42,897 nt of DNA from a phage. Position numbers and translations under genes: made by a program. Below the pieces are notes generated by a model that saw only the letters and a program-made list of their open reading frames with translations, was not told the DNA's origin and ran no database searches. Location: the NCBI GenBank assembly GCA_029955215.1, contig GCA_029955215.1_4351.1; one strand, given 5' to 3'. This document shows positions 1,971 through 35,639 of this stretch, piece after piece (the stretch's first letter is position 1; every line of letters begins with the position of its first letter).

Positions 1971-2232
1971 CAGCTACACTGTGACCGTTGATTTTGAGGG
2001 GCTGGATTTGCCCCTCCCCAACAACTATAGGTATATAACCCGTGACCGTTTCGGTTTTATTCAGGGGTGGAGGAACAAACCAACATACACTGAGTTCGGG
2101 ATGTCAGGAGGAGAAGAGTTGCCAATCACGTTCGGACATCAGAGTAGCAACGAAGAACTTAAAACTGTGATTCGTAAGTATCGTCGCCGCGGTAACACTG
2201 GGTTTATAGCGATAACCGGCGCTCTTGAGTAA
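1960..2232 (+). CDS. hypothetical protein (about 90 aa)
   Basis: ORF track 1954-2232 begins at TTG; first ATG at 1960. Confidence 0.45.
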   Translation: MNFNSYTVTVDFEGLDLPLPNNYRYITRDRFGFIQGWRNKPTYTEFGMSGGEELPITFGHQSSNEELKTVIRKYRRRGNTGFIAITGALE

Positions 2233-2248
2233 GAGAGAGAGGCAGAAG

Positions 2249-2581
2249 ATGGGTAACAAAAACGAAGTATTCGAGTACCTGATTGACCAGCTACGGCAGC
2301 AGGTAAACAACAACCAGTGCGAAGACCTGGCGCACGAGGTGCAGTCACTTAAGAATCAGTTACGTGATGCGTCGGCGCAGATTAGGGATTTGCATGTCGC
2401 CTTGGTTAAAGCTACTGGTGATGTAGAGGCTTACAAAGTTCTACGCAAGTGCGCGAAAGTGCCCGAGCAATCCGGTTGCCGTAAGGAAGACGTGCAGGAA
2501 TGCTGCCACGACTTTGAATACATATACCCCGAAAGTGGGGCGCATCGTCATTGTATTAAATGCGGATGGACAACCGAATGA
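2249..2581 (+). CDS. hypothetical protein with coiled-coil N-terminus and Cys-rich C-terminus (110 aa)
   Basis: ATG 2249 after RBS-like gagagg; C-terminal CCHDF...HRHCIKCGW. Confidence 0.45.
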   Translation: MGNKNEVFEYLIDQLRQQVNNNQCEDLAHEVQSLKNQLRDASAQIRDLHVALVKATGDVEAYKVLRKCAKVPEQSGCRKEDVQECCHDFEYIYPESGAHRHCIKCGWTTE

Positions 2582-2781
2582 CCAGCATCTTATTTATCTG
2601 GGTATTATACGCGGGCCAGATGCAACTAGCGGCATCAGAAACGTTTTACTCGATGGAGGCGTGCCAGTCAGCGGCACGCGCCGCAGAGAACGCGCACTTC
2701 CTGTTTCAGGGAGACAAGCCCAACGATTCAGAGGTGCGCGCTATCTGCTCACCTAAGCGACTTGGTAAACAGGAGAAATAA
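2578..2781 (+). CDS. small protein with N-terminal signal-peptide-like hydrophobic segment (67 aa)
   Basis: ATG 2578 overlaps upstream stop (ATGA); MTSILFIWVLYAGQMQLAAS... Confidence 0.45.
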   Translation: MTSILFIWVLYAGQMQLAASETFYSMEACQSAARAAENAHFLFQGDKPNDSEVRAICSPKRLGKQEK

Positions 2782-2782
2782 C

Positions 2783-2965
2783 ATGGTACAGAGATATAGC
2801 TACAACCCGATGTTCGGGTTTACTCCTGATGTTGAAGGCGGGTTAGTGCTTTACGAAGATTACGTGAAACTCGAAGCCGAGTTACAGAAATACAAAGACC
2901 AGTTCCCGGATTACGTCGAGTGCGCGAACTGTGGGTCAGTTACACATGTGGAAGGGGCGGAGTGA
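2783..2965 (+). CDS. hypothetical protein (60 aa)
   Basis: ATG 2783 preceded by AGGAG 2771-2775. Confidence 0.45.
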   Translation: MVQRYSYNPMFGFTPDVEGGLVLYEDYVKLEAELQKYKDQFPDYVECANCGSVTHVEGAE

Positions 2966-3258
2966 TGTCTTTAGCAACTGACATCCTGAAACGAAGCGGC
3001 CTTGCGCCGCTGTCACCAAGAGCGAACACCAGAATATACAAGCGCCGCCGTAACGCGCTGTTCCCTGAGATTCAGGCCAGACTCAAAGCTGTCCGCGCCT
3101 GTGGATTCCAGAACGGGAAGGCCGTGAATCTCGGTGAGTTTAAAACAAAGGAACGCGCCGCAATCGCTAACCGGTTATTTAATTACTGGAAATCGATGGG
3201 GTACGATGATATTCCAACGAAACCGCAGAGACGACAATACATCTGGAGACATAAATGA
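2965..3258 (+). CDS. hypothetical basic protein (97 aa)
   Basis: ATG 2965 overlaps upstream TGA; RBS gaagggg. Confidence 0.45.
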   Translation: MSLATDILKRSGLAPLSPRANTRIYKRRRNALFPEIQARLKAVRACGFQNGKAVNLGEFKTKERAAIANRLFNYWKSMGYDDIPTKPQRRQYIWRHK

Positions 3259-3695
3259 CTACTATCGCGTTTGACGGAAAGACAATGGCCTGTGACACCC
3301 GTGCTGTTTGCGGGAGTAACTGTTACAGCACAGACACTAAGATATACGAGAATGATTTCTCCGTTATTGGGGTGGCTGGTGATGCGGGGGTCAGCACTAT
3401 GCTTATAGATTGCCCGTATATCCTCCAGGCCAGACCATATGACTTCGATTTCGAAGCCCTGGTATTCGTGAAAGACGCAGAAAAGGTGTATAAAGTAGCG
3501 TTTTATAAATCGTGGGATTGTGCCCTTAGTTCGGTTATTCCGGTTGCCGATAGCTTTTCGGCTGTGGGGTCTGGCTCCCCTTATGCTCTGGCGGCTATGT
3601 ATTTAGGTAATACGGCAACACGTGCGATTACTGTAGCCGCACAATTTGACACTAACACCGGTGGTAAGATTATTACCAAACGACTATTAGGATAA
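3255..3695 (+). CDS. HslV/proteasome-beta-like Ntn-hydrolase family protein (146 aa)
   Basis: N-terminal MTTIAFDG (Thr directly after Met) and internal AVGSGSPYALAAM align by eye with E. coli HslV MTTIVSV... / AIGSGGPYAQAA. Confidence 0.6.
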   Translation: MTTIAFDGKTMACDTRAVCGSNCYSTDTKIYENDFSVIGVAGDAGVSTMLIDCPYILQARPYDFDFEALVFVKDAEKVYKVAFYKSWDCALSSVIPVADSFSAVGSGSPYALAAMYLGNTATRAITVAAQFDTNTGGKIITKRLLG

Positions 3696-9960: not shown

Positions 9961-11012
9961 GCAAGCTATCGCAGATGATTATCAGCCATCAAATATGGCT
10001 ACAGAGACTAGGAACGCAAACAGCGTCGCTGTCCGTCCCCTTCGTCAATAAGATGCGTGCGGAGGTGCGCGACGCGGTGCTTAAGTTCGGTGACGACGCG
10101 CGCACAGTGAAGAAGCTGAATAAATTGCTGACAAGCCTGGATGGCGTGCTGGATGACGTAACCGGCGATTGGAAGAGCACGATAGAGAAGAGCCTTCGCG
10201 AGATTGCCGACTACGAGAATAAGTGGTTTATCCATACGCTGGAGGCCAACACGAAGCCGAAAACGTTCATTACCGGACCTACGGCAGAAGAACTGTGGTC
10301 GCGTATCAAGTTCGCACCACTGGCGATGGGTAACTCACCTGTCAGCGTTATGGACCTGATGTCAGGCTGGGCGCAGACCGAGCGTAACCGCCTTGTGCGC
10401 GGCATACAGACCGGCTTTGTGCAGGGGCAGACAACCCGCCAAATTGTCTCTGCCGTTGTGGGTCCCGGTGGCCTGGCCGATATCTCTGAGCGCAACGTAA
10501 TGACGGTAGTCCGAACAGCAGTGAGCCACGTATCGAACACGGCGCGAGACTCTGTGTACGACAGCAACAGCGATATTGTGAGCAAATATCAGTGGGTATC
10601 TACGCTCGACAGCCGTACTTCGACTGTATGTAAGTCGCGCGACGGCCAGAAATATGACATAGGTAGAGGGCCGATGCCCCCCGCCCATCCGAACTGCCGC
10701 AGTACCACTATCCCGGTAATCGAAGATGACTTCCTGGACTTTCTCGACGAGGGGGCTAAGCGGGCGGCTAAGGGTGCGGACGGCGGTACTCAGGTAAGCG
10801 CAGACACCACCTATTACGAGTTCCTGAAGCAACAACCGGCATGGTTTCAGGACCAGGCGCTCGGCCCTGTTCGCGGTAAGATTTTCCGCGGCAGCGGTAT
10901 ATCGCCGGAAGAGTTTCGCGTAATATCTGTAGATGGTTTCGGGAATCCACTCACGCTTAAGCAGATGGCGGAACTCGATAAACGTGTTGCTGATTATCTG
11001 AAAGGGGAATAA
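9957..11012 (+). CDS. head morphogenesis protein (Mu gpF / SPP1 gp7-like)
   Basis: Position after portal; 351 aa; sequence character of the Mu F family. Confidence 0.65.
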   Translation: MSKLSQMIISHQIWLQRLGTQTASLSVPFVNKMRAEVRDAVLKFGDDARTVKKLNKLLTSLDGVLDDVTGDWKSTIEKSLREIADYENKWFIHTLEANTKPKTFITGPTAEELWSRIKFAPLAMGNSPVSVMDLMSGWAQTERNRLVRGIQTGFVQGQTTRQIVSAVVGPGGLADISERNVMTVVRTAVSHVSNTARDSVYDSNSDIVSKYQWVSTLDSRTSTVCKSRDGQKYDIGRGPMPPAHPNCRSTTIPVIEDDFLDFLDEGAKRAAKGADGGTQVSADTTYYEFLKQQPAWFQDQALGPVRGKIFRGSGISPEEFRVISVDGFGNPLTLKQMAELDKRVADYLKGE

Positions 11013-11473
11013 TGATGGGCTTTTTCAAAGTAACTGATGTACCGTCGCGCCGCGTAGTCCAGTACGCCCGCGTGTCAGGCTCTGGTGAGAACGTGGTGTT
11101 TATTGAAGATGAAAGTGTACTCGGTACACCAGTAGACGATATGCCGTTTGCAGATAAAACTGGTATTGCGCTACCGGCGGCGGGCATGCTTTACGAGATT
11201 CCGTATCTGGCTGATGCTGGTGACGTATATTTCTCTGTGCAACCGAAAGACACGGAACTTGCAGACGGCAGCGCAACTATCGCTGTAGAGGTTAAGGCCG
11301 GCAAAGCGCCATATGCTCTGACCTGGTACAAAGACGGTAAGGAAGTGGTCAACGCCCCGGAAGAGGCTTTGTCCCTGACGGTTAATGCGGCTGGTGAATA
11401 CTTCGTTAAAGTTACCGATGCCAATGGAGTGGAGGCGGTTAGCAAAGCGGCGAAGGTTACTAAGCCAGAATGA
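11012..11473 (+). CDS. Ig-like-domain protein (153 aa), possible capsid-associated
   Basis: C-terminal YALTWYKDGKEV...GEYFVKVTDANG resembles Ig-like fold repeats. Confidence 0.45.
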   Translation: MMGFFKVTDVPSRRVVQYARVSGSGENVVFIEDESVLGTPVDDMPFADKTGIALPAAGMLYEIPYLADAGDVYFSVQPKDTELADGSATIAVEVKAGKAPYALTWYKDGKEVVNAPEEALSLTVNAAGEYFVKVTDANGVEAVSKAAKVTKPE

Positions 11474-32119: not shown

Positions 32120-32375
32120 TTTGCAAATCACCTCGTTCTTTGGCGAACCTTAACGCCCTTCTGGCGGCCGATGAGTTTGAAGTATATCTGTGGCCGCATG
32201 TTTTGCATTCTAACTTCGGCGTTCCGTTTTTAGTTTCTCCGATAACAATGACATTACGCCACCTGATAAAGCTACTGTCTCTGTGGCCGTCTCTGGTGGA
32301 AAATGATGACGCAAGCCAGGCGCCCTCCCACTCCCGCAAACACTTAACACATCGCAAGCTATGATGTACTGTCAT
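32112..32375 (-). CDS. zinc-ribbon protein (87 aa)
   Basis: CVKC ... CKTCGH cysteine pairs. Confidence 0.45.
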   Translation of the reverse strand: MTVHHSLRCVKCLREWEGAWLASSFSTRDGHRDSSFIRWRNVIVIGETKNGTPKLECKTCGHRYTSNSSAARRALRFAKERGDLQNE

Positions 32376-32566
32376 TTTGCCACCAGTACCAGTTCTTTAC
32401 GCCCAAACGCTGTAACGTTACCCGTTACATCTTCGATAACCAGTTTACCGTTCGACTCGACGAACACAGTATCAACGGCAACAGGCCGGCGTGTCTTAAC
32501 GTTGAAAATCATGTCGCCAGGTACGATGTCGCGTGCCGGTTTGCGGTCATATTCGTATTTATTCAT
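32372..32566 (-). CDS. hypothetical protein (64 aa)
   Basis: Overlapping stop/start with neighbours. Confidence 0.4.
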   Translation of the reverse strand: MNKYEYDRKPARDIVPGDMIFNVKTRRPVAVDTVFVESNGKLVIEDVTGNVTAFGRKELVLVAK

Positions 32567-32801: not shown

Positions 32802-33086
32802 TTAACTATAATAGTTCACTATTAGGTCGTCAACCTCTTCTTTTGTTCCTACTACAAAAACATTTGCGCCACGTTTACGAAGCCGTTTGTGCTCCCGCAA
32901 CTGATGGTCCTCCGGTTCCGTGTTTTCATCCTTCTTCACCTCTACAAACCATATCACTCCTCCTGGAAGGGCGACTAACAGGTCAGGCGCTCCGTTTCTA
33001 CCCTCGTACGACAGCTTACGAACGAGGCCGCCAATAGCCTCGAATCGGTCTTTTGCGTATTTCTGTATTTTGCCTTCCGGGGTCAT
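32802..33086 (-). CDS. VRR-NUC domain nuclease
   Basis: PDLLVALPGGVIWFVEVK (D...E-x-K) ; start at ATG 33086 (ORF track TTG 33101). Confidence 0.65.
   Translation of the reverse strand: MTPEGKIQKYAKDRFEAIGGLVRKLSYEGRNGAPDLLVALPGGVIWFVEVKKDENTEPEDHQLREHKRLRKRGANVFVVGTKEEVDDLIVNYYS
32805..32833 (-). promoter_or_regulatory. sigma70-like promoter, class II (TTGACG-N17-TATAGT) on minus strand
   Basis: Minus-strand reading ttgacg-acctaatagtgaactat-tatagt; contains AATAG-N4-CTATT core. Confidence 0.6.
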
Positions 33087-33235
33087 TAGCGCAGAACCCA
33101 AGTAAGGAAAGCCCCTCCTAGAACGGCAATACCGACAAACTTAAAGAACAGACCGTAACAGAACATCGCAGCTATTCCCGCGCCGGATAACAGTGCGAGC
33201 ATGGTTACTGTCGTCCAAAATACAAACATTGTCAT
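33086..33235 (-). CDS. micro-ORF c: small membrane protein (49 aa, not in ORF track)
   Basis: ATG overlaps upstream stop; hydrophobic MTMFVFWTTVTMLALLSGAGIAAMF... Confidence 0.35.
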   Translation of the reverse strand: MTMFVFWTTVTMLALLSGAGIAAMFCYGLFFKFVGIAVLGGAFLTWVLR

Positions 33236-33321
33236 AATACGCACCCCTCACGTTTCGTATGCGCAATGCCACAGCGCGGACAGATTCGACAGTCTTCTTC
33301 ATAGAACCAGTAAATTTTCAT
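33232..33321 (-). CDS. micro-ORF b: zinc-ribbon mini-protein (29 aa)
   Basis: CRICPRCG; ATG overlaps stop of micro-ORF a. Confidence 0.3.
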   Translation of the reverse strand: MKIYWFYEEDCRICPRCGIAHTKREGCVL

Positions 33322-33449
33322 TCCAGCACCCACAGATAAATTGCGATTAACATACACAATACGGCAACCATCATTCCGTATTGACCTTCGTGACAGTAAA
33401 CCCCGGCGGCGAATCCCGCCAGCGCCGTAACAATCAGTTTACTTAGCAT
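33318..33449 (-). CDS. micro-ORF a: small membrane protein (43 aa)
   Basis: ATG 33449 after gaggtg RBS, 12 nt after polymerase stop; hydrophobic core. Confidence 0.35.
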   Translation of the reverse strand: MLSKLIVTALAGFAAGVYCHEGQYGMMVAVLCMLIAIYLWVLE

Positions 33450-33461
33450 TAGAACCACCTC

Positions 33462-35639
33462 TCACTTAGCGTACCGGTACATTTCGCTGCCTTCTGCTAC
33501 AAGAGGGAATCCCTCAGCCCATTCAGGTAATTCGCACATCAATCGTTCGAGTTCAGCCACATTGTATTCAGGCGAATCTGGCGTCTCGCAGATAATTTCA
33601 TCGTGTACATGAAGTACAATCGGGTAGCCGTTTGCTTCAACGTTAAGTAGCGCATTAGCCAGCAAGTCACGGCACAGTGCCTGGGTACAGTTTTCCACCA
33701 GTTTCCCGGAGTACGTGTACTGGAAGCCCCACTGACGAGTTAACTGGTTTTCACCTTGGTACTTGATGCGCACGTTAGTAGAAACTTTCCCGTCTTCGTC
33801 CGTCTCTTTCGATACACTTAAACCTACGCCAGGGTAGGACATTACGCGGCCTGACGGCAACGTCATGCGCAACCACCAACCAGCTACCTTGTTGCCGTTG
33901 TTATCTGTTTCTACGTTGCGTGAAAACTTAACGCCACGAGGACCAGCGGTGAACTCTTTCCCTGGATTACGTATTGCCGCCATAGCTGCGTCTTCGATAT
34001 CACGCCAGAAAGCTACAGTCTCAGGGTGCGACTCGCGCCACATGCGCTTGATAGCGTCACATGTACGCCAGACTTTCTTATCCAGAATATATGATGGTCG
34101 GTCATCTTTTTCACCAGGACGCGGTGGCCGCTTGGCTTCCTGAATACGCGCCCACTCGTACCCACGTGCGGTAGCGGCCCAGATGTGGTCAGGGAAAGTA
34201 CCGTCCATTGTTTTAGCCATATCAACCAGGTCAAGGCCGAGGTTCTTGGCGAACTGAACGAAAGCCCCTACGCCGCCAGCGTAGCCGAGTCCCAACTCGC
34301 AAGCTTTGCCTATCTGGCGAAGGTCTTTACGTTCTTTCTTAATGTAATCCGGTTCCAGGCCAAACATCTTGCCCGCCGTTACGCAATAAATATCCAGCCC
34401 GGCCCGGAAAGTATCGAGCGCGGCTTCTTCGCCCGCCAGCCATGCCAGCCCGCGACCTTCAACGTTAGAGTAATCTGCAACAACAAACTTGTGCCCTGCT
34501 TCCGGGATAATGCAGCTGCGCACCGTAGATGCCGTTAGCTTGGCTACATCAAACCGACGATGCGCACGTCCTTTCAGCAACGCAGAAATCCCTTTATCCA
34601 GCTCATCGTCATGATAGTACCCGCGGGCCAGGTTCTGTGGCTGGAAGCCTTTACCGGCGAATCGTAGCGTACGTTTAGCCCCGCCGTACTGGATGCAACC
34701 GCGGCGGCGGTCGTCAGAAGAACGACCCAGCAATAACGGTGTGTATTTCGTTGACGCGGTGGACGCCGCTCCGAGGCGCATTTCGACAATATCACGGGCA
34801 TCGTCGGGTAAATCCTCGTCAGCCAGCAGGTCAAACAACGTTGCTTTTTGCGCGTTATGAATGCGGTTCGCAGGGGCCAGTTCCTGCAATGCCGGTAGAA
34901 AGTCTTTTCCGGTTAATGAACAGCCGAATTTACGTTGCGATTCCTCCTGCAACTCCCCCTTATGCCGTGTTATGGCTTCAATAGCGGCTTCTGCCAGCGC
35001 AATATCAACCTTGAACCCGCGGTCGTTGATTAACTGGTCCAGTTCCAGTACGCGGTCCTCGAACTCAGAGTTGCCCCACGACGGCATTTTTTGAAACACT
35101 TCACGCATCGAAGTGATATCACTAATAGCGTACTTGATGAATAACGCCCACTCCTCCGGGTGCGTCTCAGACGTATAGCGGCGTATTTTGTAATTCTTCG
35201 GGGTCGGCTTGGTGAATCTCTTTATTAACGCCTTACCGCGTTTGTCCTTGGCGTTCTCTGCAGATACTTCCAGCACTTCACACAAAACAGCCAATTTCCC
35301 CGGCAGCGCGTGGCGAAAAGCACAGGTCATTGTATCTATAACGCTGCTTACAGGTATGTCATAGCCCCAGCAGTTGCGGATAACTAAGCGGTCAAACATA
35401 TTGAAGTTATGACCTACAATCTTAATATCCCCTCTCATTGCCTTACGCAGGCCAACTTTCAGGTCGCGCGGCATATCGCTGCCGTCTGTGCAGTCCCAGC
35501 AACGCACCTCGCCGTCGTCGAACGCGTAGGTGCATATCATAATTTCTGTAGATGGGTGTTCGGCGTAGGCATAACTGCCGACAACCGTTATGTCTAATTC
35601 ACAAAAAGTTTCTGTATCAAGATAAAGTAATTCGTTCAT
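33462..35639 (-). CDS. DNA polymerase, family A with 3'-5' exonuclease domain
   Basis: Exo I motif DTETF; motif B RQIGKACELGLGYAGG; motif C VLHVHDEI; 725 aa. Confidence 0.9.
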   Translation of the reverse strand: MNELLYLDTETFCELDITVVGSYAYAEHPSTEIMICTYAFDDGEVRCWDCTDGSDMPRDLKVGLRKAMRGDIKIVGHNFNMFDRLVIRNCWGYDIPVSSVIDTMTCAFRHALPGKLAVLCEVLEVSAENAKDKRGKALIKRFTKPTPKNYKIRRYTSETHPEEWALFIKYAISDITSMREVFQKMPSWGNSEFEDRVLELDQLINDRGFKVDIALAEAAIEAITRHKGELQEESQRKFGCSLTGKDFLPALQELAPANRIHNAQKATLFDLLADEDLPDDARDIVEMRLGAASTASTKYTPLLLGRSSDDRRRGCIQYGGAKRTLRFAGKGFQPQNLARGYYHDDELDKGISALLKGRAHRRFDVAKLTASTVRSCIIPEAGHKFVVADYSNVEGRGLAWLAGEEAALDTFRAGLDIYCVTAGKMFGLEPDYIKKERKDLRQIGKACELGLGYAGGVGAFVQFAKNLGLDLVDMAKTMDGTFPDHIWAATARGYEWARIQEAKRPPRPGEKDDRPSYILDKKVWRTCDAIKRMWRESHPETVAFWRDIEDAAMAAIRNPGKEFTAGPRGVKFSRNVETDNNGNKVAGWWLRMTLPSGRVMSYPGVGLSVSKETDEDGKVSTNVRIKYQGENQLTRQWGFQYTYSGKLVENCTQALCRDLLANALLNVEANGYPIVLHVHDEIICETPDSPEYNVAELERLMCELPEWAEGFPLVAEGSEMYRYAK

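Follow-up and report, generated by a model that had tools for sequence, protein, structure and literature searches.

The analysed window, a stretch of 42,897 nucleotides of phage DNA (GCA_029955215.1, contig GCA_029955215.1_4351.1), belongs to a Kagunavirus (Guernseyvirinae) and is, at the locus described here, 99.9% identical to Escherichia phage vB_EcoS-Ro145c2YLVW. All genes at the locus are located on the minus strand, in the order polA, orf1, orf2, orf3 and VRR-NUC, and the slot formed by them is part of the replication operon, which runs leftward. Upstream in the translational chain is polA (35639..33462), coding for a DNA polymerase I (family A) of 725 aa, which was taken from the ORF list together with the DNA polymerase annotation in MH051334 and relatives and which ends with a TGA at 33464..33462. 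It is followed by a spacer of 12 nt (33461..33450; GAGGTGGTTCTA), in which the Shine–Dalgarno element GAGGTG of orf1 is present as initially annotated. The three small genes are orf1 (33449..33318, ATG to TGA, 43 aa; MLSKLIVTALAGFAAGVYCHEGQYGMMVAVLCMLIAIYLWVLE), orf2 (33321..33232, ATG to TGA, 29 aa; MKIYWFYEEDCRICPRCGIAHTKREGCVL) and orf3 (33235..33086, ATG to TAA, 49 aa; MTMFVFWTTVTMLALLSGAGIAAMFCYGLFFKFVGIAVLGGAFLTWVLR). The last link of the chain is the VRR-NUC nuclease gene (33086..32802, 94 aa), assigned by the annotation of relatives and by matches to phrog_93 and phrog_5702, both of which stand for endonuclease/Holliday junction resolvase. Its product gave a weak match to Pfam VRR_NUC (E 0.018), which is below the cut-off, and is annotated as VRR-NUC in relatives.

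In the window, orf1/orf2 and orf2/orf3 overlap by ATGA each, and the stop of orf3 and the start of VRR-NUC share one base in TAATG. The initial annotation had described 33086–33449 as a gap without ORFs of at least 60 aa, occupied by three small ORFs of 43, 29 and 49 aa with overlapping starts and stops. No such longer ORF lies wholly inside the interval, and the lengths and overlaps of the three agree with that description. The 12-nt spacer belongs to an insertion of ~23 nt in which GCTAAGT is duplicated and which, among the loci examined, was found in the Ro145 lineage only (the window and L001). At nearly all other Guernseyvirinae loci the ATG of orf1 is located 11 nt inside polA.

Coding status of the three small ORFs

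Selection was assessed by pairwise counts on related sequences, not by a phylogeny-aware model, which yielded pN/pS values of 0.22 for orf1, 0.17 for orf2 and 0.23 for orf3 in the proposed frames, next to 0.20 for VRR-NUC as control. The remaining same-strand frames gave values of 0.75–2.2. Substitutions gather at third codon positions (in orf2, 23 of the 29 third positions are variable), and for each of orf1, orf2 and orf3 the proposed frame has the best codon-usage log-likelihood of all six. Matches to PHROG profiles covered positions 1–43 of 43 for orf1 (phrog_10404, full length, E 4.2e-30), 5–32 of 36 for orf2 (phrog_38225, E 1.4e-22) and 1–49 of 50 for orf3 (phrog_14925, E 3.9e-31). The genes of the window are members of these families, without difference, and the families are of unknown function.

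Three ATG-initiated ORFs, each of ≥25 aa and chained by overlaps of 1 or 4 nt, were obtained in 2 of 5000 dinucleotide-preserving shuffles (p ~4e-4). The three-ORF arrangement is more than chance, and the comparative evidence for this is much stronger than the shuffle test. Judged by the comparison of related sequences, orf1, orf2 and orf3 are real protein-coding genes under purifying selection. Conservation of the frames in related phages, named in the initial annotation as a way to check the three ORFs, was found for all of them (pN/pS 0.17–0.23).

Translational coupling and turnover of the slot

In a census of 51 loci, 61 ATGA overlaps (4 nt), 47 polA/orf1 overlaps of 11 nt and 7 one-base overlaps were counted. 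Overlapping junctions are kept in nearly every arrangement, whatever cassette is present, and the stop/start overlaps noted in the window persist across differing gene arrangements in about 50 related genomes. Starts which overlap or abut the upstream stop, and which are conserved in this way in relatives, characterize a coupled chain, and this is what was found here. In distant relatives the stop of polA overlaps the start of VRR-NUC directly. Duplex energies with the anti-Shine–Dalgarno sequence were −10.3 kcal/mol for orf1, −6.0 kcal/mol for orf2, −10.8 kcal/mol for orf3 and −3.6 kcal/mol for VRR-NUC, at a null mean of −2.4 kcal/mol; the strong element of orf3 (GAGGGG) is located inside orf2.

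From their sequence, polA, orf1–orf3 and VRR-NUC would function as one chain. As each start has a Shine–Dalgarno-like element in the preceding gene and overlaps the stop of that gene, ribosomes could finish one gene and restart on the next, and VRR-NUC, the own element of which is weak in the window, would probably depend on this relay. A fusion of polA or orf1 to orf2 by read-through or frameshift was considered and rejected, since the frame relation to polA differs among the window, its relatives and the genomes devoid of orf1, the fusion points vary between proteins and the frame is without purifying selection (pN/pS 1.2–2.2). The frame of orf2 is open across orf1, and fusion proteins of 68–72 aa exist in metagenome assemblies.

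The distribution of the genes was surveyed in 50,697 phage records, with VRR-NUC counted at ≥60% identity. A match to orf2 was present in 445 records (443 with at least 80% coverage), compared with 454 records holding this VRR-NUC, while orf1 was present in 224 and orf3 in 121 records. Where orf2, polA and VRR-NUC are kept, orf1 is missing in about half and orf3 in about three quarters of the genomes. In genomes without orf1, the initiator region of orf1 (MLSKLII) is fused in frame to the core of orf2, and in phage ER12 orf1 carries a deletion and a premature stop next to an intact orf2. By these sequence comparisons, orf2 forms the conserved core of the slot and is retained in practically every Kagunavirus and Jerseyvirus genome. 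The cassettes orf1 and orf3 are optional, being subject to loss, decay or replacement by other small genes or homing endonucleases. The segment from polA to VRR-NUC thus presents itself as a mosaic site for micro-genes. At three loci (L003, L020, L051) a 25-aa ORF stands in place of orf3, from which it may derive by deletion; the alignment is ambiguous.

Since orf1 and orf3 are absent from these fractions of genomes in which the replication genes stay, the membrane peptides are dispensable for replication. Anchoring of replication to the membrane, which the initial annotation had offered as a role for the micro-proteins, is unsupported for the same reason. Homologues of orf1 and orf2 outside the Guernseyvirinae were searched for and none were found, so that no function can be transferred to them.

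Properties of the predicted peptides

The product of orf1 has a GRAVY of 1.44 and contains 3 charged residues only. In the AlphaFold2 model (pLDDT 93.5), it consists of two helices (residues 2–20 and 23–42), joined by a polar turn with the conserved residues Y-C-H-E-G-Q-Y-G, and only a few of 76 sequence clusters depart from a length of exactly 43 aa. With two hydrophobic helices of bilayer length and a short polar turn, it is predicted to be a small integral membrane protein. A fold search with the hairpin returned nothing significant, either in the PDB (best E 5.3) or among viral models (best E 0.4). Many uncharacterised phage proteins of 45–65 aa can be superposed on the hairpin (best E 0.4), as can the Ac protein (T4-type ‘acridine resistance protein’) of Salmonella phage Melville (TM-score 0.85, E 2.2, not significant), but a helical hairpin is too simple a shape for such superpositions to show relatedness. 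The matches are generic transmembrane hairpins, and the functions of the small two-helix phage membrane proteins compared are also poorly known.

The product of orf3 is more hydrophobic still (GRAVY 1.61), with 2 charged residues only and with K32 placed between two hydrophobic stretches; on hydrophobicity it was classed as a putative small membrane protein. Of the two ‘hydrophobic helical peptides’ described initially, both are hydrophobic as stated, and a helical hairpin is backed by a model for orf1. The possibility that orf1 and orf3 are paralogues flanking orf2 was rejected (hhalign probability 0.6%; local alignment z 2.2 against shuffles).

The product of orf2 carries the motif C11-x2-C14-x2-C17-x3-H21-x5-C27, i.e. 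three Cys within seven residues followed by His and Cys, of which C14-P-x-C17-G, H21 and C27 are conserved. Across the aligned loci C14 and C27 never vary, and C17 and H21 hardly do. Because several genomes have R or F in place of C11 and C17, H21 or C27 is lost in single sequences, the set of metal ligands named here is a putative one. By its sequence, orf2 is a soluble Cys/His peptide and a probable zinc-binding one, with a CPxCG knuckle plus H21 and C27. The form found in Jerseyvirus has 36 aa and matches positions 1–36 of the 36-position phrog_38225 profile.

The initial annotation had termed this peptide a CxxC-x-CxxC mini zinc ribbon. A conserved Cys/His motif of putative metal-binding character was indeed found, but neither the CxxC-x-CxxC pattern nor the label applies. 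Two CxxC knuckles make up a zinc ribbon; orf2 has a single CPxCG knuckle (C14, C17), the other conserved candidates being the single residues H21 and C27, so that the term is too specific. Compared with known zinc-ribbon families, orf2 gave no Pfam match at the cut-off, no NCBIfam match and PDB profile matches at E ≥0.2. The latter were solely to rubredoxin-type CPxCG knuckles and zinc ribbons, which share C-P-x-C-G with orf2, namely the C-terminal site of 3-hydroxyanthranilate 3,4-dioxygenase, ribosomal protein S27ae, RNA polymerase subunit M and Nop10; they are not significant and cover 6–16 residues. With the retroviral-type CCHC zinc knuckle (zf-CCHC), orf2 has in common a very small module and the ligand order Cys-Cys-His-Cys within ~14 residues. 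The spacing is however C-x2-C-x4-H-x4-C in zf-CCHC and C-x2-C-x3-H-x5-C in orf2, Pfam gave no match, and orf2 was not placed in this class.

A word-indexed search with orf2 gave 10 matches, all of them close relatives or orf1–orf2 fusion artefacts, and a profile search of 1.84 billion representatives gave only its own family and repetitive Cys-rich proteins. The AlphaFold2 model of orf2 (pLDDT 55) was unusable for a fold search. Descent of orf2 from a Cys-rich 84-aa protein encoded upstream of VRR-NUC in phage VSiP found no support, as only the 10-residue knuckle aligns (hhalign probability 19.5%).

Possible roles and standing of the genes

The reading best in accord with the sequence comparisons, and a highly probable one, is that of real, selected and co-translated micro-genes in a mosaic slot. 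What the peptides do can be suggested more tentatively. The product of orf2 might fold round one metal ion, likely Zn, via C14, C17, H21 and C27. Possibly, it is a small cytoplasmic adaptor which acts on the DNA replication or recombination proteins of the phage itself or on DNA, and it could perhaps be made in step with polA and VRR-NUC. For orf1 and orf3, insertion in the inner membrane as helical hairpins is a tentative assignment. Their roles may conceivably be accessory and host-directed, such as superinfection exclusion or modulation of membrane proteins, rather than in replication itself. The models for anti-phage defence in PADLOC gave no match for the micro-ORFs.

A comparable run of very small, packed genes is found in phage T7, where genes 5.3, 5.5, 5.7 and 5.9 are flanked by the genes for the DNA polymerase (5) and the exonuclease (6), likewise between polymerase and nuclease in a DNA-metabolism operon of a virulent phage. 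Several of the small T7 products have host proteins (H-NS, RecBCD) as their targets, rather than replication itself. In contrast to orf1–orf3, they are soluble, with neither a membrane hairpin nor a Cys/His peptide among them, and it is on the T7 side that host targets are known. The T7 5.3–5.9 products and orf1–orf3 are not known to share sequence similarity.

A dedicated place of orf2 in the DNA machinery, as a trans-acting zinc knuckle which binds DNA or bridges polA and/or the minimal 94-aa VRR-NUC resolvase and without which Kagunavirus and Jerseyvirus would not replicate or recombine normally, was regarded as unlikely. The nearly equal record counts of orf2 and VRR-NUC (445 and 454) argue for it, and so do the position of intact orf2 matches between polA and VRR-NUC wherever the context was examined, the rescue of the orf2 start by in-frame fusion where orf1 is deleted, and unrelated small Cys-rich ORFs directly upstream of VRR-NUC elsewhere (84 aa with CPFCG in VSiP, 76 aa at L064, 83 aa at L071). 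Outgroup phages, however, couple polA directly to VRR-NUC or hold unrelated genes in the slot, and the idea of an obligatory cofactor is weakened since both enzymes work there without orf2. Moreover, orf3, a 64-aa cassette or an HNH gene often lies between orf2 and VRR-NUC, searches of Pfam, PDB profiles and NCBIfam and the profile search linked orf2 to no known polymerase or nuclease cofactor in structure or sequence, and the likeness to the VSiP protein is that of the knuckle alone (hhalign probability 19.5%). It also seems quite unlikely that orf2 is a subfamily-wide, functionally important metal-binding micro-protein of 29–36 residues, made in step with the polymerase and the resolvase, which would represent a new kind of trans-acting accessory subunit for the replication or recombination of phage DNA and might, for instance, serve the minimal VRR-NUC nuclease or the polymerase as a knuckle for DNA binding or dimerisation. 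That about 4 in 10 of the sampled annotated genomes have no annotation for it would then explain why it was overlooked.

That the ORFs are a translational relay only, with functionless peptides and with frames kept open for ribosomes from polA to reach VRR-NUC, could be argued from the overlapping junctions in nearly every architecture, from the weak Shine–Dalgarno element of VRR-NUC in the window and from the free exchange of cassettes, tolerable as long as reading-through alone mattered. Such a relay would, however, let the amino acids drift, whereas pN/pS is ~0.2, equal to the nuclease control, and both residues (the turn YCHEGQYG in orf1; C14, C17, H21 and C27 in orf2) and lengths are fixed; other phages do take the shortest route, a direct overlap of polA with VRR-NUC, which was not adopted here, all of which makes a mere relay very improbable. 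An assignment of orf1 and/or orf3 to lysis, as holin, antiholin or pinholin-like membrane proteins or as depolarising toxins timing the end of infection, would suit two small, very hydrophobic, two-segment products in a size class overlapping that of small holins. Yet both genes lie in the replication operon, opposite in strand to the lysis genes, the annotation of the same genome places holins, endolysin and spanins at other sites (record positions 2231–3270 and 10946–11441), and half or more of the related genomes, which lyse normally, are devoid of orf1 or orf3. The position in a lysis cassette and the charged C-terminal tail by which holins are recognised were not found, the C-termini being …WVLE and …WVLR, nor was a holin family matched in Pfam, PHROGs or NCBIfam, and a lysis function is accordingly held to be most unlikely. 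A non-coding interval (regulatory RNA, promoter or terminator region, homing-endonuclease target) with ORFs arising by chance could be argued from the homing endonuclease genes inserted at the locus in some relatives and from ~60–78 nt inside orf2, which are the most widely alignable DNA of the interval. The three-base periodicity of substitutions and a pS of 0.41 in orf2 place conservation at the level of protein and not of DNA, however, and the interval gave no Rfam match (E up to 1) and no excess of promoter-like or terminator-like sites over shuffles. The shuffle test (p ~4e-4) speaks against this reading as well. Together with pN/pS and with the worse codon usage of the other five frames, the substitution pattern and the negative searches effectively refute a non-coding interval.

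In current records, the micro-genes of the slot are covered unevenly. The nearest GenBank record has orf1 and orf3 annotated, and phage Schulenburg has all three, while orf2 is unannotated in MH051334 and 10 of 23 sampled annotated records hold no feature under the orf2 match. The initial remark that such genes are easily missed by annotation is therefore right in part, for orf2 more than for orf1 and orf3, and all three have PHROG families. Genome reports on Ro145clw, Golestan and other Guernseyvirinae contain no discussion of orf1–orf3, and neither a transcriptome or proteome study nor functional literature on the genes was found. The three genes already have catalogue entries as phage proteins without an assigned function; the initial observation holds but is a fairly ordinary one, and the evidence so far leads no further than to ordinary small phage genes of this kind.

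The practical value is modest. Comparative evidence confirms that orf2, a gene of 29 codons, is real and nearly universal in Kagunavirus and Jerseyvirus, two genera in wide use against E. coli and Salmonella, in biocontrol as well as in therapy. As the slot between polA and VRR-NUC swaps small genes and yet keeps its stop/start overlaps, it is a natural system in which translational coupling and the turnover of micro-proteins can conveniently be studied. Should orf2 prove to be a cofactor of replication or recombination, or orf1 and orf3 to be exclusion factors, this would be of interest to phage biologists. In many deposited annotations, orf2 is missing or bears the wrong name ‘transposase’ or ‘dioxygenase’.

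Organisation of the locus and coding evidence

The 1.1 kb around the micro-ORFs was 99.9% identical to Escherichia phage vB_EcoS-Ro145c2YLVW (MH051334) and Ro145clw, and 83–88% identical to many Kagunavirus genomes (subfamily Guernseyvirinae). Every gene of the micro-ORF region lies on the minus strand, in a long leftward operon comprising primase-helicase, polA (DNA polymerase I, family A), VRR-NUC nuclease and second helicase genes along with the micro-ORFs; the lysis genes are located elsewhere in the genome, on the opposite strand. polA (35639..33462, minus, stop TGA) is followed on the same strand by a spacer (33461..33450, GAGGTGGTTCTA), orf1 (33449..33318, 43 aa), orf2 (33321..33232, 29 aa), orf3 (33235..33086, 49 aa) and VRR-NUC (33086..32802, 94 aa), the junctions from orf1/orf2 to orf3/VRR-NUC being ATGA, ATGA and TAATG. 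The three micro-ORFs, lengths and overlaps described in the initial annotation match the sequence and the ORF table. Dinucleotide shuffling of the interval produced a three-ORF chain with such overlaps (ATG starts, at least 25 aa each) in 2 of 5000 cases. Two genes 3′ of VRR-NUC, a 64-aa ORF (32372–32566, minus) strongly matched phrog_4879 (E 2e-45); its Salmonella phage S4lw counterpart is annotated as ‘CooT family nickel-binding protein’.

Eighty loci were gathered from viral contigs using the VRR-NUC protein as query, and the window and two GenBank loci were added to the 48 that were Guernseyvirinae with orf2, for a comparison set of 51. Conservation of the frames in relatives, the check proposed with the initial annotation, was assessed as pN/pS from pairwise Nei–Gojobori counts over distinct sequences: the proposed frames were constrained, at 0.22 for orf1 (39 sequences), 0.17 for orf2 (44 sequences) and 0.23 for orf3 (23 sequences), against 0.20 for the identically handled VRR-NUC control. 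The remaining two same-strand frames gave 0.75–2.2; the antisense frame sharing the wobble position also appeared constrained, which is an expected artefact. Variable columns were mostly third codon positions (23 of 29 in orf2), and a codon-usage model trained on the window's 17 long ORFs ranked the proposed frame top of six for each ORF. Full-length PHROG matches were obtained (phrog_10404, phrog_38225 and phrog_14925, none with functional annotation), and orf1 had exactly 43 residues in nearly all of 76 sequence clusters from a large protein collection. Based on these sequence comparisons, orf1, orf2 and orf3 are real genes.

Across all arrangements in the 51 loci, 61 four-base ATGA-type, 47 eleven-base polA/orf1 and 7 one-base overlaps were counted, with few non-overlapping junctions, mostly at inserted genes. 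Anti-Shine–Dalgarno duplex energies in the window were −10.3 (orf1), −6.0 (orf2), −10.8 (orf3) and −3.6 kcal/mol (VRR-NUC), where the null had a mean of −2.4 and 10% of random sites reached −6 or below. The region contained no excess of promoter-like or terminator-like sites and no Rfam match. Given the overlaps kept across arrangements, the duplex energies and these null results, coupling of the chain appears well supported. The GAGGTG ribosome-binding site noted for orf1 is present; it is created by a ~23-nt insertion with duplicated GCTAAGT at the polA/orf1 junction (33450–33472, minus) in the Ro145 lineage (window and locus L001). The insertion also sets the orf1 start codon apart from the polA stop; among the other Guernseyvirinae loci examined, nearly all have that ATG 11 nt inside polA.

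Gene turnover between polA and VRR-NUC

tblastn against 50,697 phage records returned orf2 in 445 records (443 at ≥80% coverage), orf1 in 224 and orf3 in 121, with VRR-NUC at ≥60% identity (454 records) for comparison; hosts were enterobacteria throughout, save for one record labelled Pseudomonas phage. All three ORFs were present in 22 of the 51 loci, orf1 and orf2 only in another 22, orf2 and orf3 only in 2, and orf2 alone in 5. In orf1-less genomes (L010, L011, L034, L038, L040, L043 and L049; ~1760–2010 in locus coordinates, corresponding to window 33232–33449) the orf1 body is gone, leaving the seven initial codons (MLSKLII) fused in frame with the orf2 core. The resulting 33–36-aa product keeps its start 11 nt inside polA, and TGATTAT microhomology lies at both deletion endpoints. 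The 36-aa form matched phrog_38225 over its full length, and the fusion is the form on which this family is built. In phage ER12, orf2 is intact and orf1 has acquired a premature stop along with an in-frame deletion.

orf3 was replaced or accompanied by a 64-aa CxxC-containing ORF (phrog_25645), a 25-aa hydrophobic ORF or an HNH homing endonuclease of ~165 aa (159–171 aa). These cassettes (L007, L015, L023, L025, L035, L037, L041, L048; L003, L020, L051; L042, L045, L047, L005; L090) enter at gene boundaries, with start/stop overlaps mostly retained, and by sequence comparison the slot is a cassette hot spot. From record counts, locus arrangements and slot contents, orf2 is therefore assigned as a core gene of Kagunavirus and Jerseyvirus, with orf1 and orf3 optional. 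Partial orf2 matches occurred in only two records, one of them Escherichia phage vB_Eco_AMO_3701M (L086, PQ474795); there polA is broken into three CDS and orf2 contains an indel, which suggests a sequence with numerous frameshift errors rather than true gene loss.

Among outgroup phages, the slot holds a HExxH protein of ~115 aa (phrog_1365) in Serratia phage Otaku (L088, 851–1204), L050 (1610–2011) and L052 (1663–2004), an 84-aa Cys-rich protein in VSiP (L089, 945–1199) and an HNH gene in phiEap-2 (L090); it is empty in L054, L059 and L060, whose polA stop and VRR-NUC start overlap. Further small proteins are encoded directly 5′ of VRR-NUC in L064 (1768–1998), L071 (1747–1998), L056 and L058 (both 1795–2004). 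Outgroup proteins in this position are unrelated and include several Cys-rich ones, one with CPFCG (phrog_4030) and one with a C-terminal membrane helix, as well as a 69-aa two-segment membrane protein. Small Cys-rich or membrane proteins beside VRR-NUC may be a recurring theme.

Predicted products

AlphaFold2 with 32 family members modelled orf1 as a two-helix hairpin (H2–20/H23–42; pLDDT 93.5 for the best model, 71–79 for the other four), and conservation peaked in the polar turn Y18-C-H-E-G-Q-Y-G25 and the A/G-rich face of helix 1. Fold searches with orf1 returned only non-significant generic transmembrane hairpins, among them many uncharacterised small phage proteins and one T4-type Ac protein. 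orf3 exceeds orf1 in hydrophobicity (GRAVY 1.61), places K32 between two hydrophobic stretches and had no detectable relationship to orf1. Both are hydrophobic, as initially described.

orf2 is soluble, with 9 of 29 residues charged. Its segment ...D-C-R-I-C-P-R-C-G-I-A-H-T-K-R-E-G-C-V-L has the pattern C11-x2-C14-x2-C17-x3-H21-x5-C27 and not CxxC-x-CxxC as initially given, the sole error in that description. In the 51 loci, C14 and C27 were invariant, one or two sequences differed at C17 and likewise at H21, and C11 was R or F in several, so C14, C17, H21 and C27 are the likely ligand set; one database variant carries C27R. The label ‘mini zinc ribbon’ is overly specific: by definition orf2 is neither a zinc ribbon nor a CCHC knuckle, and it has only the CPxCG motif (C14, C17) in common with them. 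The orf2 AlphaFold2 model was of too low quality for use, and no search method used found homologues outside the subfamily.

The orf2 frame has no stop across all of orf1 (33321–33449), and metagenome assemblies contained 68–72-aa proteins (P0001–P0005) with the orf1 start followed by orf2 at varying shift points. Because this frame shows no purifying selection over orf1, the fusions probably reflect indel variants or errors of assembly rather than a programmed frameshift.

Interpretation and annotation status

The locus is, with high confidence, described as three selected small genes, overlap-chained within a replication operon, in a cassette-exchanging slot. Ribosomes would pass from gene to gene, so that the peptides would be made along with polA and VRR-NUC. 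That the ORFs are purely a translational relay is contradicted by the amino-acid conservation, and the codon signal likewise contradicts a non-coding element in the interval. A lysis role of orf1 and orf3 is contradicted by their genomic position and dispensability.

For the three selected genes, functions can be proposed tentatively. orf2 might be a metal-stabilised cytoplasmic knuckle acting on the phage DNA machinery or DNA; a role as a hitherto unnoticed accessory subunit of replication or recombination enzymes is improbable. Equally speculative, orf1 and orf3 might sit in the inner membrane as hairpins and play accessory roles directed at the host; among the early small membrane proteins of phages, superinfection exclusion is the most frequent role. 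The micro-genes are similar in kind to the many phage small hairpin membrane proteins, and to the small T7 genes packed between those for the polymerase and the exonuclease. The earlier interpretation is supported in part: it holds for real, selected, overlap-linked genes, and the zinc-ribbon label of orf2 goes too far; the finding is sound but ordinary.

The existence of the three genes is already known, as they are PHROG members and appear as ‘hypothetical protein’ in many records. Phage Schulenburg has all three annotated, along with ribosome-binding sites; in MH051334, orf1 and orf3 are annotated and the intervening 82 nt of orf2 carry no feature. When the 445 orf2 records were sampled at even intervals, 10 of the 23 with annotation lacked any feature beneath the match. 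orf2 is called ‘transposase’ or ‘3-hydroxyanthranilate 3,4-dioxygenase’ in two records, both misnames stemming from the CPxCG knuckle alone.
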